Positions 6,380-24,326 of a stretch of DNA of 64,000 bases are shown here, in pieces (the stretch's first letter is position 1; every line of letters begins with the position of its first letter). The notes under the pieces are model-generated. The model was given only the letters and a program-made list of their open reading frames with translations. It ran no database searches and was not told where the DNA came from. The translations under genes and the position numbers were made by a program. The stretch is from the NCBI GenBank assembly GCA_037139155.1, contig JBAXGZ010000001.1, forward strand, positions 36,845-100,844. The letters run 5' to 3'. The stretch comes from Actinomycetes bacterium. GTDB lineage: Bacteria > Actinomycetota > Acidimicrobiia > Acidimicrobiales > Acidimicrobilacustridaceae.

Positions 6380-6733
6380 TCAGACCAGCTCGATGCGTGC
6401 CATCGGCGCATTGTCGCCTTGACGCGGGCCGAGCTTCAGGATGCGGGTGTAGCCACCCGGGCGTCCTTCATAACGCGGTGCGATGTCGGAGAACAGCTTT
6501 GACGCCATTTCCTTATCACCCATGAACGACACGACCTGACGGTGACGGTGGACGCCACCCTTCTTGGCCTTGGTGATGAGCTTCTCGGCGATGGGACGAA
6601 GCGCCTTCGCCTTCGCTTCGGTGGTGACAATGCCCTCGGCCGCAAACAACGAGGCCGCGAGGTTCGCCATCATCAGGCGTTGGTGAGAGGCGCTACCGCC
6701 GAATCGTTTGGACCTACGTGGGGTTCCAGGCAT
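6380..6733 (-). CDS. rplQ: 50S ribosomal protein L17
   Basis: [28 protein letters not shown]. Confidence 0.98.
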
Positions 6734-6739
6734 AGCGAA

Positions 6740-9160: not shown

Positions 9161-9274
9161 TCAGCCCTGCCGTTGCTTGTGACGAGGGTTTTCACAAATG
9201 ACCTGCACGCGACCATGGCGGCGGATCACCTTGCACTTCTCACAGATCTTCTTGACGCTTGGGCGTACTTTCAC
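9161..9274 (-). CDS. rpmJ: 50S ribosomal protein L36 (Zn-binding type)
   Basis: Hand translation from GTG 9274: [37 protein letters not shown]. Too short for the ORF track. Confidence 0.98.
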
Positions 9275-9390
9275 TGCGTTTGTTCCTTTCGCCCGGACTC
9301 TGCCGGGAACATCGGAGCGAAGTTGTGAGCCGAAGCCACACCCCTCCGATGGGTCCGATCCTTCTGATCAGACACTCGCTTGTGTTCAGT

Positions 9391-15497: not shown

Positions 15498-16145
15498 TCA
15501 GCGCGAAAGACGAGTGTCGATGGTGCTCAGAAGACGACCAAAGACCTCGTCGGGACTACCAAGTCCGTCAACTTTGACCAACAAACCTGACGATTCATAA
15601 AAGTCAATGGTTGGTTGGGTTTCTGTGGTGTAGGCAGCAAGGCGCTTGGCAATTGATTCGGGGGTGTCGTCCGCGCGTTGAACAACTTCGCCCCCACACT
15701 TATCGCACACCCATTCCGTTGACGGCGGCGCGGCGACGGAGTAGATCGCCCCGCATTGTGCACACACGCGGCGAGATGAAATACGCTCAAGTACAACGTC
15801 TTCAGGAACGACAAGGTCGATCGCGACATCGATGGTTGCGAACTTCGACATCCCTTCGGCTTGCACAACCGTGCGCGGAAAGCCGTCAAGAAGAAAACCG
15901 TTTGCTTGCACATCGGCTTGGTTGAGTCGTTCTTCCACCACGCCGAGAATGATCTGGTCCGAGACAAGGCCACCGGCGTCCATCACGGCCTTCGCTTCGA
16001 TGCCAAGAGGCGTACCGGCGGCAACCGCAGCGCGCAGCATGTCTCCGGTGGAGATGTGCGGAGTTCCGTAATGCGCTGAAAGCCGCTCGGACTGAGTGCC
16101 CTTGCCTGCTCCCTGCCGTCCGAAGATGAGCAGACGAGCGGTCAT
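15498..16145 (-). CDS. adk: Adenylate kinase (long Zn-lid type)
   Basis: GRQGAGKGT, HISTGDMLR, LLDGFPR, lid CAQC...CDKC. Confidence 0.98.
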   Translation of the reverse strand: MTARLLIFGRQGAGKGTQSERLSAHYGTPHISTGDMLRAAVAAGTPLGIEAKAVMDAGGLVSDQIILGVVEERLNQADVQANGFLLDGFPRTVVQAEGMSKFATIDVAIDLVVPEDVVLERISSRRVCAQCGAIYSVAAPPSTEWVCDKCGGEVVQRADDTPESIAKRLAAYTTETQPTIDFYESSGLLVKVDGLGSPDEVFGRLLSTIDTRLSR

Positions 16146-17458
16146 TACTTCAGGAATCCTTCATAGTTCCGCATCATCAACTGGCTATCGATCTGCTTCA
16201 TGGTCTCGAGGGCGACGCCCACCGCGATGAGGATCGAGATACCGGTGAAGGACACCTGCGTACCTGGAAGGTAGGTAGTGAGGATGTAGGACGGAACCAG
16301 TGCAACAGCAGCGATGAAGAGAGCGCCGGGAAGGGTGATTCGTGACAGCACCTTGGCGAGGTAACGCTCAGTCTGGGGACCGGGACGAATGCCAGGAATA
16401 AAGCCACCCTGCTTACGAAGCTGATCAGCCTGCTTCACCGGATCGAAGGTGATGGCGGTGTAGAAGTAGGCGAACCCAATGATCAGAAGACCGAAGATGA
16501 TCATATGAATCGGAGCATTAGGCGTAACGAGGTTTGAGTTCACCCAATCCTGCGTGCTCTTACCCCAACCGTCAGCTGGCAACACGAAGCTGAGCAACTG
16601 CGGAAGGTACAGAACCGAACTAGCGAAGATGATCGGGATAACGCCCGACTGGTTCACCTTGAGGGGGATGTAGGTGCTCTGACCGCCGTACTGACGACGA
16701 CCAACCACACGCTTGGCGAACTGCACGGGGATTCGACGTTGACCCTGTTCGACATAGACGATTGCGACGGTGATGAGCGCATAGCCGGCGAGAACCAGGA
16801 TCACAGCGATCCATCCACCGTTGGCCTTGATCGTGGCCATCTGGCTCGGGAGCAAGGACACAACCGAGGCGAAGATCAGCAATGACATGCCGTTGCCGAT
16901 GCCACGCTGGGTGACAAGTTCACCCATCCACATAAGCAGCGCAGTACCGGTCGTGAGCGTGAGGATGATGAGCAGCACGCGCCCCACGGTGAAGTTGGGG
17001 ATGAGGTCAAGGCCAGTGGTGTTGCCTCTCGTGAGACCACCGCCGCCGTTATGGAACAGATAGGCCAAACCAGTGGCCTGAAGAATGGCGATGCCCATCG
17101 TCACATAACGGGTCCACTGTGTGATCTTGCGCTGACCAACAGCGCCCATGTTCTGCCATTCCTCAAGCTTGGGAATAACGACACCGAGGATCTGCATGAT
17201 GATCGACGCAGTGATGTACGGCATGATGCCAAGAGCGAAGATCGCGAAGTTGGTGAGTCCACCACCGGAGAACAACTTCAGGAATGCCAGCACGCCACCC
17301 GAATCGGCTTGCGACTTGAGTTGCTTAAGCGCCGCGGTATCAATTCCGGGAACGGGAAGATGAGCGCCCAGGCGATACAGGGCGATGATCAGCAACGAGA
17401 ACAGGACCTTGTTGCGAAGGTCCTGGACCTTGAAGATGTTCTTGAGATTTGCGAGCAC
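16145..17458 (-). CDS. secY: Preprotein translocase SecY
   Basis: IFALGIMPYITASII, GIGNGMSL, GGFIPGIRPG. GTG start at 17458. Confidence 0.99.
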   Translation of the reverse strand: MLANLKNIFKVQDLRNKVLFSLLIIALYRLGAHLPVPGIDTAALKQLKSQADSGGVLAFLKLFSGGGLTNFAIFALGIMPYITASIIMQILGVVIPKLEEWQNMGAVGQRKITQWTRYVTMGIAILQATGLAYLFHNGGGGLTRGNTTGLDLIPNFTVGRVLLIILTLTTGTALLMWMGELVTQRGIGNGMSLLIFASVVSLLPSQMATIKANGGWIAVILVLAGYALITVAIVYVEQGQRRIPVQFAKRVVGRRQYGGQSTYIPLKVNQSGVIPIIFASSVLYLPQLLSFVLPADGWGKSTQDWVNSNLVTPNAPIHMIIFGLLIIGFAYFYTAITFDPVKQADQLRKQGGFIPGIRPGPQTERYLAKVLSRITLPGALFIAAVALVPSYILTTYLPGTQVSFTGISILIAVGVALETMKQIDSQLMMRNYEGFLK

Positions 17459-20102: not shown

Positions 20103-20288
20103 TCACCAACTGGCCTTTTTCAGACCAGGAATTTCGCCAGCGTGTCCGAGTTCGCGAAGGCAAACACGGCAGAGCTGGAACTTGCGGTAGACAGCACGAG
20201 GCCGTCCGCACTTCTGGCAACGGGTGTAACCACGAACCTTGAACTTCGGGGTCTGACGTTGCTTATTAACGAGCGCCTTTTTGGCCAT
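20103..20288 (-). CDS. rpsN: 30S ribosomal protein S14, Zn-binding type
   Basis: 61 aa, RCQKCGR and LCRVC. Confidence 0.98.
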
Positions 20289-20860
20289 TACTGCTGCCCC
20301 TCACGCTTGAACGGGAAGCCGAAAGCATCGAGCAGGGCTTTGCCCTCGGCATTGGTCTTGGCAGTGGTCACGATCGTGATGTCGAAGCCGCGGGGGACGT
20401 CGATCTTGTCGTAATCGATCTCCGGGAACATGAGCTGCTCCGGAAGACCAAAGGTGTAGTTGCCGTGTCCGTCAAAGGACTTCGGCGACAGTCCGCGGAA
20501 ATCGCGAATGCGGGGAATCGCCAGGCTGATGAGCCGGTCGAAGAACTCCCACATGCGATCGCCACGAAGCGTGACCTTCACACCAATGGCATTGCCTTCG
20601 CGCAGTTTGAAACCGGCGATGGACTTCTTGGCCTTGGTCACGATGACCTTCTGGCCGGTGATCCGCTCGAGATCACGCACGGCACCATCGAGCAGAGAAG
20701 ACTGCGCGAGGGCCTTGCCGACACCCGAGTTGATCACGATCTTCTCGAACCGCGGAACCTGCATGATGTTGTCGAGTTCGAGCGTGCCCTTGAGCTGGGT
20801 ACGAATCTCATCGTTGTAGCGGGTCTTGAGCCGAGGAACACTCACCGTTGCGGTGCTCAT
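20288..20860 (-). CDS. rplE: 50S ribosomal protein L5
   Basis: [23 protein letters not shown]. Start ATG 20860. Confidence 0.99.
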
Positions 20861-22462: not shown

Positions 22463-23365
22463 TCAGTCACCATCCCCGGGACGGAAATGCGGGGTTTCGT
22501 GGGGCTGGCGAGTGGAACGCTCGATCTCTTCTTCCTCGGCGAGAAGTCGCTCGAGCTCGGGATCGGCCTCCTTCACCAGCGGAGTTGCTTCGATGTCTTC
22601 AATCAGTTCCGAATCGGCATCGCGCTTGCGACCCGCAGCTGAGGAGACGACCTTGCGGGGACGAGCGTCACCGGAAGGTTCACCAACAGCCATCGCCGCT
22701 TCACGGGTGGCCTTGTCATCGAGCACGCTCTTGTAGGGGAGAATGTCGCCCTTGTAGAGCCACACCTTCACGCCAATGCGGCCGTAGGTGGTCTTTGCTT
22801 CACGGAAGCCGTAGTCAATGTCGGCGCGAAGCGTGTGCAACGGGACTCGACCTTCGCGGTACCACTCAGTGCGTGACATTTCTGCGCCACCGAGGCGACC
22901 CGCGCACTGAACGCGGATGCCAAGGGCACCGGCTTTCTGTGCGTTCTGCACAGCACGCTTCATGGCACGACGGAAGGCAACACGACCAGCAAGCTGATCG
23001 GCGACACCCTGAGCGATCAGCGCAGCGTCGAGTTCAGGCTGCTTGATCTCCTGGATGTTGAGCTGGACCTTGTTGTTGCCGGAAATCTTGGTGAGACCGG
23101 CTCGGAGGCGATCGGCTTCTGCGCCACGACGACCGATAACGATGCCGGGACGAGCAGTGTGCACGTCGACACGGAGACGGTCACGGGTGCGCTCGATCTC
23201 AACACGACTGATCGCGGCATGCGGCAGCTGTGTCATGAGGTAATCGCGGATCTTCCAATCCTGAATGAGGTTGTCGGAGTATTCGCGACGATCGGCGAAC
23301 CAACGCGACTTCCAGTCGGTGGTCACGCCGAGGCGGAACCCGTACGGGTTGACCTTCTGACCCAT
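22463..23365 (-). CDS. rpsC: 30S ribosomal protein S3 with C-terminal extension (300 aa)
   Basis: [36 protein letters not shown]. Confidence 0.99.
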
Positions 23366-24048
23366 CAGTCTTCCTTCCCGTCGGTCTCGACGGCTTCGTC
23401 GGCTACTGCATCTTCGACACCAGCGTCATCGACAACCACGGCGTCATCGACAACCACGGCTTCAGCGACAACGACGTCGTCGGTCTCTGCGTGGTCATGA
23501 TCGTGGTCATGATCGTGGTCATGGTCATGATCGTGATCGTGATCGTTCTCTTCTTCGACCTTGCGTTCGGCCTTGGCCTGACGGCTGCGAGCCACACGTT
23601 CACGACGTGCTTCGGCTGCAGCGCGTCCACCAGAGACGCGGCCACTAGCGGCTTCACGCTCACGAAGCTTCTCGAGATCGTCGGTCGACAGGCGACTCAC
23701 GATGATCGTGATGTGGCAGGTGCGCTTACGAATGCGCGTGGCACGACCACGAGCACGGGGACGCCAGCGCTTCAGAGTCGGGCCCTCGTCAGAGAAACAG
23801 GCCGAGACGAAAAGTTCGTCGGCCGGGATCTGGTTGTTGTGCTCGGCGTTGGCGATTGCCGACTCGAGACACTTCAGGACAACGCGAGCAATGTCGCGTT
23901 CGGCCATTTCGAGCACCTCAAGTGCTCGTGAGACCGGGAGTCCGCGGATGAGATCAAGGATCTCGCGGGCCTTATACGCCGATGAACGGACGTACTTGAC
24001 CTCGGCGCGCACGCCCGGACGCTCGTTGGTCTTCGCACCGAAGGCCAT
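23365..24048 (-). CDS. rplV: 50S ribosomal protein L22 with long acidic/His C-terminal extension (227 aa)
   Basis: [32 protein letters not shown], followed by a (DH)9 tract. Confidence 0.98.
23491..23544 (-). repeat. Coding (Asp-His)x9 tract within rplV
   Basis: Nine GAY-CAY dicodons with mixed synonymous codons. Confidence 0.95.
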
Positions 24049-24326
24049 CAGCGGCGTCCCTTCTTCTCTTGGCCGGCATGGAACCTGAAGGTTCGCGTCG
24101 GGGCGAACTCACCAAGCTTGTGGCCAACCATCGCCTCGGTGACATACACCGGGACGTGCTTGCGACCGTCGTGGACGGCCATGGTGTGGCCAACCATTTC
24201 GGGGATGATCGTGGAACGACGAGACCAGGTCTTGATGACCTTCTTTTCGTTCTGTTCGTTGAGTGCGTCGACCTTCTTAAGAAGATGGTCGTCGACAAAC
24301 GGACCCTTTTTGAGGCTGCGAGGCAT
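24048..24326 (-). CDS. rpsS: 30S ribosomal protein S19
   Basis: [26 protein letters not shown]. Confidence 0.99.

Follow-up and report, generated by a model that had tools for sequence, protein, structure and literature searches.

Why would a core ribosomal protein carry a run of alternating aspartate and histidine residues? The question is raised by rplV, the gene for ribosomal protein uL22, in a 64,000-nt stretch of DNA (the window) from a freshwater actinobacterium.

The uL22 gene and its surroundings

The gene occupies positions 23365..24048 of the minus strand and encodes 227 aa within the S10 operon. Upstream lies rpsS (uS19; 24048..24326, minus strand) and downstream the translationally coupled rpsC (uS3; 22463..23365, minus strand). 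The stop and start codons of the three genes overlap, the rplV start sharing 1 nt with the rpsS stop and the rplV stop sharing 1 nt with the rpsC start (TGATG). L2 is encoded upstream and L16 downstream, likewise on the minus strand, and the place between rpsS and rpsC is that of uL22. Profile searches agree with this assignment: residues 15-118 match PF00237 (Ribosomal_L22; E 4e-38, 130 bits against a cut-off of 28) and the protein matches TIGR01044 (NCBIfam rplV_bact; E 3e-38, 130 bits against a curated cut-off of 73.65). This core domain (23695..24006, minus strand), which includes a tunnel beta-hairpin of 15 residues, is normal, with AlphaFold2 (AF2) pLDDT values of 90-95 across most of its length and matches to uL22 chains in the PDB. 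The sequence-only reading had placed L22 near the tunnel exit, as is borne out by published work in which the exit ring consists of six proteins, L17 and L22 among them, and peptide deformylase docks between L22 and L32 (bioRxiv 10.1101/312850, 10.1101/2022.04.20.488877).

The surroundings of rplV contain no hyp, ure or lar genes, and the gene shows no linkage to metalloenzyme maturation or metal transport. The sole other clear His-rich metal protein of the genome, a LarC-like protein, is encoded on another contig. It had also been pointed out that the same cluster encodes Zn-type S14 and L36 proteins and a Zn-lid Adk. The motifs are present (CxxC...CxxC in S14, CxxC...C...H in L36 and a Cys4 lid in Adk), but proteins of these types are common in Gram-positive bacteria, and as ordinary features they add nothing to the interpretation of the tract. 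uL22 itself has no paired CxxC and its extension contains no Cys, which places it outside the C+ zinc-ribbon proteins.

The C-terminal extension

Past the core, uL22 continues for 109 residues. AF2 places a first helix at residues 122-135 (23644..23685, minus strand) and a second, Arg-rich helix at residues 140-168 (23545..23631, minus strand; modelled over 140-169 with pLDDT 73-90). Within the latter, R148, R149, R151, V152, S155 and R156 are invariant across 50 homologues, and the helix is presumed to anchor the extension to the rRNA surface. Both helices are shared with mycobacterial uL22, the alignment reaching query residue 148 in 5o60_T and 163 in 5v7q_S, so that alignment and AF2 model together identify an extended uL22 of the actinobacterial type. 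Translation of the ORF gives EEEN(DH)9AETDD at residues 165-190, after the core and the Arg-rich helix, exactly as had been read from the DNA. The (Asp-His)9 tract itself (residues 169-186; 23491..23544, minus strand) is a predicted divalent-metal-binding module that relatives share in position and composition. It is followed by an acidic tail of Val, Asp, Ala and Glu (residues 187-227; 23368..23490, minus strand), which finishes in a conserved ...DGKED with a K225 that is nearly invariant in homologues. The model is confident for the core and helices and disordered over residues 170-227, with pLDDT below 50 across the tract and of 31-40 in the tail. Part of the tail is built of an 18-nt tandem repeat (3.3 copies; 23423..23481, minus strand) encoding VVVDDA units, and relatives carry a variable number of such units (1-5 per tail). 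In some relatives one or two sunset-domain copies follow the HD tract; a profile search found no match to the sunset domain (NF051437) in uL22 of the window.

The extension can be compared with those in the actinobacterial uL22 structures, those of M. smegmatis, M. tuberculosis and Cutibacterium acnes. The C. acnes protein has a 43-residue extension directed into solvent and the M. smegmatis extension is disordered (PMC10085706), whereas the extension described here is 109 residues long and contains (DH)9. The literature searched reports neither a His tract nor a long acidic tail on mycobacterial or C. acnes uL22, which is a statement about reports and not about the sequences themselves; nor does it report such tracts on uL22, on ribosomal extensions or on trigger factor.

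Metal-binding His-rich tails are marked by clusters of His, spaced by acidic residues or Gly, within disordered sequence, and (DH)9 has this form. The tract gives weak profile matches to the His-rich regions of RcnA, UreE and ZrgA, and shares its low-complexity ligand set with RcnA/NicO, ZnuA, SlyD, HypB, UreE/UreG and LarC. In Salmonella RcnA the 18-residue repeat is identical, (HD)9, and is described as a Ni/Co site (PMC6760104). By its sequence, then, the tract belongs to a known type, the His-rich metal tails, and its novelty is the host: a core ribosomal protein of the S10 operon, where the hosts of the RcnA, ZnuA and HypB type are transporters or metalloenzyme accessory proteins.

Conservation of the tract and its DNA

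When the C-termini of L22 were surveyed across Acidimicrobiia, as the sequence-only reading had proposed, the tract was found in at least 12 family-level groups. Three or more clustered His occur at the same site, just past the Arg-rich helix, in 115 of the 118 nearest full-length homologues, and at least four His in 17 of 19 complete tails from congeneric species. Relatives overall carry between 0 and 15 His in the tract; in the nearest full-length homologues the range is 0-13 and the commonest count 8-9. Many of these sequences come from MAGs, in which repeat lengths can be mis-assembled. Cultured carriers also exist, namely IMCC26256, which belongs to another order, and KE-4 and TE-7, both of which are complete isolate genomes. 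Across 25 diverse representatives, with tails of 106-224 aa, the tract starts 42-62 residues past the core and always directly after the RRxRVAxSR helix.

Retention is not universal. Around 85% of the representatives of Acidimicrobiales uL22 tails have no tract; in two close relatives (G003 and G015) it has shrunk to one or two DH units, and within one genus it is present in G086 and missing from G148. Absence or random length in close relatives had been named in advance as evidence against a function: the range of 0-15 His and the few close losses go some way in that direction, but His is kept in the great majority. On an L22-core tree we counted 13 gains or losses of the tract, against a mean of 23 with shuffled labels, a count that is only rough because the tree is short (126 columns, quick method). 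The tract has therefore been inherited within clades, yet turned over many times.

Could such a pattern arise from neutral low-complexity drift, in which a GAY-to-CAY change is followed by hexanucleotide slippage and functionless DH runs come and go? GAY codons are frequent in the acidic tail, and TRF detects 6-nt and 12-nt periodicity in the tract DNA (12-nt period, 4.3 copies, 85% match) beside the 18-nt repeat of the adjoining tail. A range of 0-15 His, clean losses among close relatives and a 6/12-nt tandem repeat are what is expected of a slippage-prone low-complexity region, and the (HD)9 of Salmonella rcnA, itself a slippage-prone 6-nt repeat, was deleted within one in-vivo passage (PMC6760104). 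However, drift would not be expected to hold the tract at a fixed position when it could be scattered over tails of 100-220 residues, or to exclude His almost entirely from the rest of those tails, where it accounts for 0.28% of residues; the tails are bimodal, having either a tract or nearly no His. Composition is equally constrained. In the 69 distinct tracts H accounts for 48.6% of residues, D for 34.2%, E for 10.0% and G for 4.4%, which leaves only 2.8% for everything else, and the rare Q, Y and N occupy expected His positions and lie one base from a CAY codon. Moreover, interrupted, codon-mixed tracts, including one of 18 residues, persist unchanged in many sequences, and the occurrence in so many family-level groups is joined by convergence on two other exit-site proteins (see below). 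We consider drift distinctly unlikely. Conserved position and composition support selection on the peptide, and the tract is no private accident of slippage.

The codons themselves are less informative than had been claimed. The (DH)9 tract uses GAT five times, GAC four times, CAC five times and CAT four times, close to genome-wide use (GAT 48%, CAT 44%, a rough estimate from long ORFs), and this mixture had been taken to indicate selection on the peptide in place of slippage. Selection on the peptide stands, on the grounds of position and composition; the dismissal of slippage does not, since the DNA contains 12-nt and 18-nt repeats and the codon mix must have been copied in part by unit duplication. 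In favour of selection, synonymous third positions follow genome codon use, with the residues of the tract all unchanged.

A role at the level of nucleic acid, for example through an mRNA structure that regulates rpsC translation or through clustered GATC sites, is hardly credible. The tract does lie 126-179 nt ahead of the start codon of the coupled rpsC, and five GATC sites are formed at its GAT-CAY junctions. However, in relatives the same peptide is specified by other codons (GACCAC, GAGCAC), which form no GATC, conservation is at the residue level with exchange of D and E, and the distance from tract to rpsC differs widely between relatives. Because relatives keep the peptide and not the codons, we reject an RNA-level role.

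Other carriers of HD tracts

In-frame (H-D/E)n tracts were sought in approximately 600 Actinomycetota genomes, and (H-D/E)4H in a subset of 201 Acidimicrobiales genomes. Matches to (CAY GAN)n in the DNA were rescored in the HD frame and by Pfam, whereupon about half proved to belong to another frame, encoding for example poly-Thr in the clearer cases. Across the ~600 genomes the tracts lie mainly in known Zn/Ni/Co proteins (ZnuA, NicO/RcnA, LarC, HypA/B, UreG and CDF). The Acidimicrobiales subset contains the tract on uL22 in 11 genomes and on trigger factor in 6; the other carriers there are mostly ZnuA, NicO/RcnA-like proteins, LarC, HypB/UreG, CDF and a nitrile hydratase accessory protein. 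Carriers outside the known metal proteins comprised two thioredoxin-like proteins, LeuA/CimA, a TPMT-like methyltransferase and CtaD. The enrichment of uL22 for the tract is approximately thousand-fold over the average gene.

Three proteins of the tunnel exit carry the tract in the larger census: uL22, bL17 and trigger factor. The tracts on bL17 and trigger factor had not been anticipated in the sequence-only reading. The bL17 of another actinomycetotal lineage follows the same plan as uL22, a basic stretch followed by (HD)5-6 and then an acidic tail, and both tails finish in residues of the EEK/GKE type. In 8 genomes from 4 families the C-terminus of trigger factor is (HD)n, which repeats the plan of SlyD, an FKBP-type chaperone with a His tail. 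A genome with the tract on trigger factor only (G041) suggested that the uL22 and trigger-factor tracts might be mutually exclusive, which is ruled out by G476, where both proteins carry it.

The three-part plan common to uL22 and bL17 could also serve a purpose other than metal binding, either as a hinge that responds to pH or charge where the basic helix gives way to the acidic tail, or as a docking site for a partner protein at the exit. The pKa of His is near cytoplasmic pH. However, the trigger-factor tract forms the very end of the protein, with no basic helix before it and no tail beyond, and most other carriers in these genomes are known metal proteins, so that we regard a non-metal role as very unlikely.

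A further explanation accepts metal binding and treats the exit location as incidental: any abundant protein with a tolerant disordered end, whether ribosomal protein, trigger factor or chaperonin, would serve as a general cytosolic sponge that buffers Zn, Ni or Co in bulk or detoxifies them. His-rich tails are found on other abundant chaperones, such as mycobacterial GroEL1, H. pylori HspA and E. coli SlyD, all of them folding factors, unlike uL22. The three carriers uL22, bL17 and trigger factor rank with the most abundant proteins in a cell, close relatives lose the tract without obvious consequence, and it is an accepted view that ribosomes act as a zinc reservoir (PMC11672702, section 4.2.1). 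Against a sponge, uL22 and bL17, both members of the exit ring, are the only ribosomal proteins with the tract in the ~600 genomes. Long C-terminal sunset-domain variants of L4, S2, L20 and L17 are listed in NCBIfam, and neither census contained an HD tract on L4, S2 or L20. Likewise, 54 of 79 actinomycetotal bL17 genes encode extensions, but His occurs in one lineage only. On this evidence a general sponge is unlikely.

A candidate metal arm at the exit port

The reading that we prefer, with a probability of roughly one half, is that (DH)9 is a selected, multi-site metal-binding arm of modest affinity tethered beside the exit port, both the binding and the role being predictions. The uL22 core is shown in the literature to sit at the polypeptide-exit rim of the 50S subunit. 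From there the Arg-rich helix, of about 30 residues, would probably run along the rRNA surface, and beyond it AF2 predicts a flexible, solvent-exposed segment made up of the tract and the acidic tail of 41 residues. Metal coordination by alternating His and Asp is established for Zn(II), Fe(II), Mn(II), Ni(II) and Co(II), and judging by peptide chemistry nine His may hold roughly 2-4 ions with modest affinity. Since core position, exposure and ligand set coincide, every ribosome would carry a low-affinity, multi-site metal arm adjoining the exit port. Such an arm would most likely act as a local metal buffer or donor, with metalloenzymes docked on uL22, namely peptide deformylase and methionine aminopeptidase, or nascent metalloproteins as candidate recipients. 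Its length would drift through replication slippage in 6-nt and 12-nt units, with selection holding the H-D/E alternation and the position.

Several points weigh against the metal arm. The tract appears dispensable in some lineages, given the collapse in G003 and G015 and the loss in G148, and the exit-site case consists of two ribosomal proteins and one chaperone, all very abundant and with tolerant termini. Affinity is a further concern: a Zn(II) Kd of ~2e-7 M, as for an HD peptide with five His, is weak relative to the tightly buffered free Zn of cells, and a plain zinc store is therefore doubtful. Given the modest affinities published for short HD peptides, Zn would fill little of the arm at normal buffered levels.

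The sequence-only reading of the tract as a putative metal site is supported by (HD)n peptides, which experiments have demonstrated to be metal ligands (PMC11938343, PMC9472272, PMC6760104). Peptides of the sequence HDHDHDHDH are ligands of Zn(II), Fe(II) and Mn(II); for the 13-letter model peptide the respective Kd values are 1.8e-7 M, 6.3e-6 M (the best Fe(II) value of six model peptides) and 8.4e-5 M, and it is these values that weaken the reading of the tract as a plain zinc store (PMC11938343). In a venom peptide the primary Zn(II) site is VDHDHDH (PMC9472272). The C+ zinc-ribbon proteins (L31, L33, L36, S14 and S18, with Zur-regulated C- paralogues) carry metal stoichiometrically on the ribosome and have a proposed part in the metal economy of the cell (PMC11672702). 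Their sites are structural, folded Cys4 or Cys3His sites of very high affinity, whereas the uL22 tract is Cys-free, predicted to be disordered and multi-site, and probably of low affinity. If it does bind metal, the tract would extend the notion of a ribosomal metal reservoir to binding without Cys.

How metalloproteins obtain the correct metal, and whether loading can occur during translation, is an open question, and in a recent review the insertion of metal on the ribosome during synthesis figures as a model still untested (PMC11672702, sections 5.1.4.3-4). If uL22, where peptide deformylase docks, bears a natural metal-binding arm, that model would gain something concrete to work with, and the counterparts on bL17 and trigger factor add weight to the co-translational case. 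Taken further, the exit-port (His-Asp)n arms of Actinomycetota (uL22, bL17 and trigger factor), acquired repeatedly and sometimes two to a cell, might together form a co-translational metalation platform for Fe(II), Zn or Ni. Metal would be held and handed over at the docking place of peptide deformylase and methionine aminopeptidase, where nascent metalloproteins also emerge, before folding traps their sites. We put this forward as a speculative extension and consider it unlikely. Even if inert, the tract would be a clear example of low-complexity sequence that has lasted long, and at a fixed position, in an essential protein. The cultured carriers, IMCC26256, KE-4 and TE-7, can be set beside tract-less close relatives as natural controls, and the ribosomes of tract carriers may bear a natural His-tag.

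The uL22 extension and its Asp-His tract

The rplV ORF (23365-24048, minus strand) encodes a uL22 of 227 residues. It belongs to an S10 operon of normal layout, where it overlaps its neighbours rpsS and rpsC by one base at the stop/start codons. A full uL22 domain occupies residues 15-118 (Pfam PF00237, E 4e-38; NCBIfam rplV_bact, 130 bits). Beyond this core lies the sequence ...KVEEEN(DH)9AETDD..., after which an acidic tail of Val, Asp, Ala and Glu runs to a terminal DGKED. The (DH)9 tract covers residues 169-186 (23491-23544, minus strand). The sequence-only reading had described an L22 core, an Arg-rich helix, EEEN(DH)9AETDD, an acidic tail and mixed codons, and translation of the ORF together with the codon list agrees exactly.

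An AlphaFold2 model built on a 50-sequence alignment is confident over the core (pLDDT 90-95 for the most part). It predicts a helix at residues 122-135, an Arg-rich helix of 30 residues at 140-169 (pLDDT 73-90), and disorder from residue 170 to the C-terminus (pLDDT below 50). By these boundaries the tract starts at the exact end of the basic helix, which may anchor the tail on rRNA. Mycobacterial uL22 extensions in solved ribosomes align with both helices (5o60_T to residue 148, 5v7q_S to 163). The equivalent 43-residue extension is solvent-directed in the Cutibacterium acnes ribosome, and the equivalent in M. smegmatis is disordered (PMC10085706).

The mixed codons of the tract (GAT x5, GAC x4, CAC x5, CAT x4) had been taken to argue for selection on the peptide rather than recent slippage. 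In favour of selection, third positions fit genome-wide usage (GAT 48%, CAT 44%) and the residues are all unchanged. However, Tandem Repeats Finder detects a 12-nt unit (4.3 copies, 85% match) spanning the tract and an 18-nt repeat (x3.3) in the acidic tail at 23423-23481, and therefore both tract and tail have been shaped in part by unit duplication. An RNA-level role of the repeat is very unlikely, since relatives preserve the residues rather than the codons. By eye, the GAT-CAY junctions in the codon list create five GATC sites inside the 54 nt of the tract (23491-23544). These are probably incidental, as relatives using GACCAC lack them.

Conservation among uL22 relatives

In a large protein collection, an (H-D/E)n tract was found at the same site in almost all of the 120 closest proteins listed (identity of at least ~65%). 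At least three clustered His were present in 115 of 118 full-length nearest homologues (mode 8-9, range 0-13). Among congeneric species, 17 of 19 complete tails held at least four His, with a maximum of 15. Many surveyed sequences come from metagenome-assembled genomes (MAGs); the complete genomes of isolates KE-4 and TE-7 each encode 10 His in the tract, which is therefore not a MAG artefact. Further afield, the tract was found in ~21 of 150 representatives of 50%-identity clusters, the remaining tails, each longer than 100 residues, having 0-2 His.

Despite tail lengths of 106-224 residues, the tract of 25 diverse carriers starts 42-62 residues past the core and, where an RRxRVAxSR motif could be located, 4-15 residues past it. 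The composition of 69 distinct tracts was H 48.6%, D 34.2%, E 10.0%, G 4.4% and all else 2.8%; where Q, Y or N occasionally replaces His, the codon is one base away from CAY. Beyond the tract, 0.28% of tail residues are His. The survey of L22 C-termini across Acidimicrobiia proposed in the sequence-only reading thus gave a divided answer: position and composition are conserved, whereas length turns over and, in two congeneric species with intact flanks, has collapsed to one or two DH units. Rival readings of the tract are a neutrally drifting low-complexity stretch and a hinge sensitive to charge or pH.

On a short, rough tree of the uL22 core, 25 carriers in 127 sequences correspond to 13 gains or losses, against an average of 23 (minimum 18) for shuffled labels. 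This points to inheritance within clades, yet with many gains or losses.

Two further features of these tails were observed. The uL22 frame of locus L084 (G137:C3:976170-977445) continues without a stop into uS3 (...[15 protein letters not shown]...), which points to a fusion of uL22 with uS3 or to a stop lost in that assembly. In many Acidimicrobiia uL22 tails, moreover, the HD tract or acidic segment is followed by a single or double sunset domain (NCBIfam NF051437; loci L063, L065, L067, L079, L081 and L088; proteins P0123, P0127, P0129, P0130 and P0149). The sunset exception models returned by the NCBIfam scan were for L17, L4, S2 and L20, with none for L22.

Census of tract-bearing proteins

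A DNA pattern of (H-D/E)4H was searched in 201 Acidimicrobiales genomes from 83 family-level groups, and nearly all of the ~67 matching loci were retrieved and rescored. Approximately half were other reading frames (poly-Thr in clearer cases). In-frame tracts occurred on uL22 in 11 genomes (9 family-level groups) and on trigger factor in 6 (3 families). Carriers with a clear metal role were ZnuA (3 loci), NicO/RcnA-like transporters (3), LarC (2), HypB/UreG (2), a CDF exporter and a nitrile hydratase accessory protein; the others, by Pfam, were two thioredoxin-like proteins, LeuA/CimA, a TPMT-like methyltransferase and CtaD. By these tallies about half of true tracts lie on two ribosomal-exit proteins and the remainder mostly on recognised Zn/Ni/Co proteins; counted per gene, the enrichment for uL22 is roughly a thousand-fold. 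Putative N-terminal extensions, (DH)10 or His-rich, were seen in other Acidimicrobiales on a TPMT-like methyltransferase, a LeuA/CimA-type synthase and cytochrome oxidase subunit I (L109, G155:C5; L112, G032:C1; L142, G153:C28).

A stricter pattern applied to 401 Actinomycetota genomes again recovered the uL22 tract, in another Acidimicrobiales family (genome G476) and, elsewhere in the class, in two further family-level groups, with cultured strain IMCC26256 (AKL74415.1) among the carriers. The trigger factor tract recurred in G599 and G476, the latter bearing it on uL22 and trigger factor alike. In all, trigger factor (Pfam Trigger_N and Trigger_C) ended in (His-Asp)n, with as many as ~25 His, in 8 genomes of four Acidimicrobiales families (L089, G095:C7; L090, G154:C335; L132/L159, G041:C40; L148, G169:C95; L139, G047:C20; L141, G175:C237; L157, G599:C1; L285, G476:C18).

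A third carrier is bL17 (Pfam E 1e-37; L176/L195, G229:C17; L177/L194, G273:C2; L178, G355:C1; L196; L198), whose C-terminal extension shares the plan of the window's uL22: an Arg-rich stretch (RRGRLRRRR), an HD tract, (HD)5-6, and an acidic/Pro tail to EEKSE. This tract was found in three genomes of one genus in a different actinomycetotal family, with weaker tracts in two further genera, and was absent from five other members. Extensions occur in 54 of 79 diverse actinomycetotal bL17 genes, with His only in that one lineage. The window organism's own bL17 (6383-6739, no extension) and trigger factor are without a tract.

Location at the ribosome exit

In E. coli, L17, L22, L23, L24, L29 and L32 form a ring around the tunnel exit; the C-terminal helix of peptide deformylase occupies the L22-L32 groove, and the methionine aminopeptidase site overlaps on L22 or sits between L23 and L17 (bioRxiv 10.1101/312850, 10.1101/2022.04.20.488877). 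The same port is the docking site of trigger factor (PMC8185961). The two ribosomal carriers, uL22 and bL17, therefore both belong to the six-member ring, which has a chance of ~1% if two ribosomal proteins are picked randomly from ~54, and the remaining carrier is an exit-docked chaperone. Tracts are enriched on exit-site proteins, and this is suggestive, not proof, that the location is significant: all three carriers are also just abundant proteins whose ends are tolerant, and a location-independent metal sponge on abundant proteins is a rival reading. The uL22 tail may serve peptide deformylase, methionine aminopeptidase or nascent chains.

Metal chemistry

The metal chemistry of HD peptides is established. 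For the peptide [13 protein letters not shown]2, the Kd is 1.8e-7 M with Zn(II), 6.3e-6 M with Fe(II) and 8.4e-5 M with Mn(II), the Fe(II) value being the tightest among six His-rich model peptides (PMC11938343), and a venom peptide has VDHDHDH as its primary Zn(II) site (PMC9472272). Salmonella RcnA has an (HD)9 repeat identical to that of the window's uL22, described as a Ni/Co site and deleted (54-nt) within one animal passage (PMC6760104). The published Kd values suggest that the HD tract would be a modest-affinity, multi-site ligand, and the uL22 tail may bind metal in the cell. Cellular free Zn is buffered far below 1e-7 M and labile Fe(II) is micromolar. Set against the Kd values, these levels cast doubt on a simple zinc store; buffering metal or handing it over locally, or acting as a sink when metal is in excess, is more plausible.

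His-rich metal tails are a known type; for this putative one it is the host, the ribosome exit, that is new, and the literature searched had no account of a His tract on any of uL22, bL17 and trigger factor. The same cluster encodes zinc-binding forms of S14 (CxxC...CxxC, 20106-20300), L36 (CxxC...C...H, 9164-9367) and Adk (Cys4 lid, 15501-16160), as had been claimed. The source genome has just one further clear His-rich metal protein, a LarC-like one, identified by eye as a 452-aa ORF on contig C10, outside the window, with the N-terminus HSHDHSH...HTHTHSHTH; its relatives L126 and L144 match Pfam Ni_insertion. On contig C5, also outside the window, a perfect (Glu-His-Asn)7 repeat precedes a domain in a predicted 387-aa ORF.
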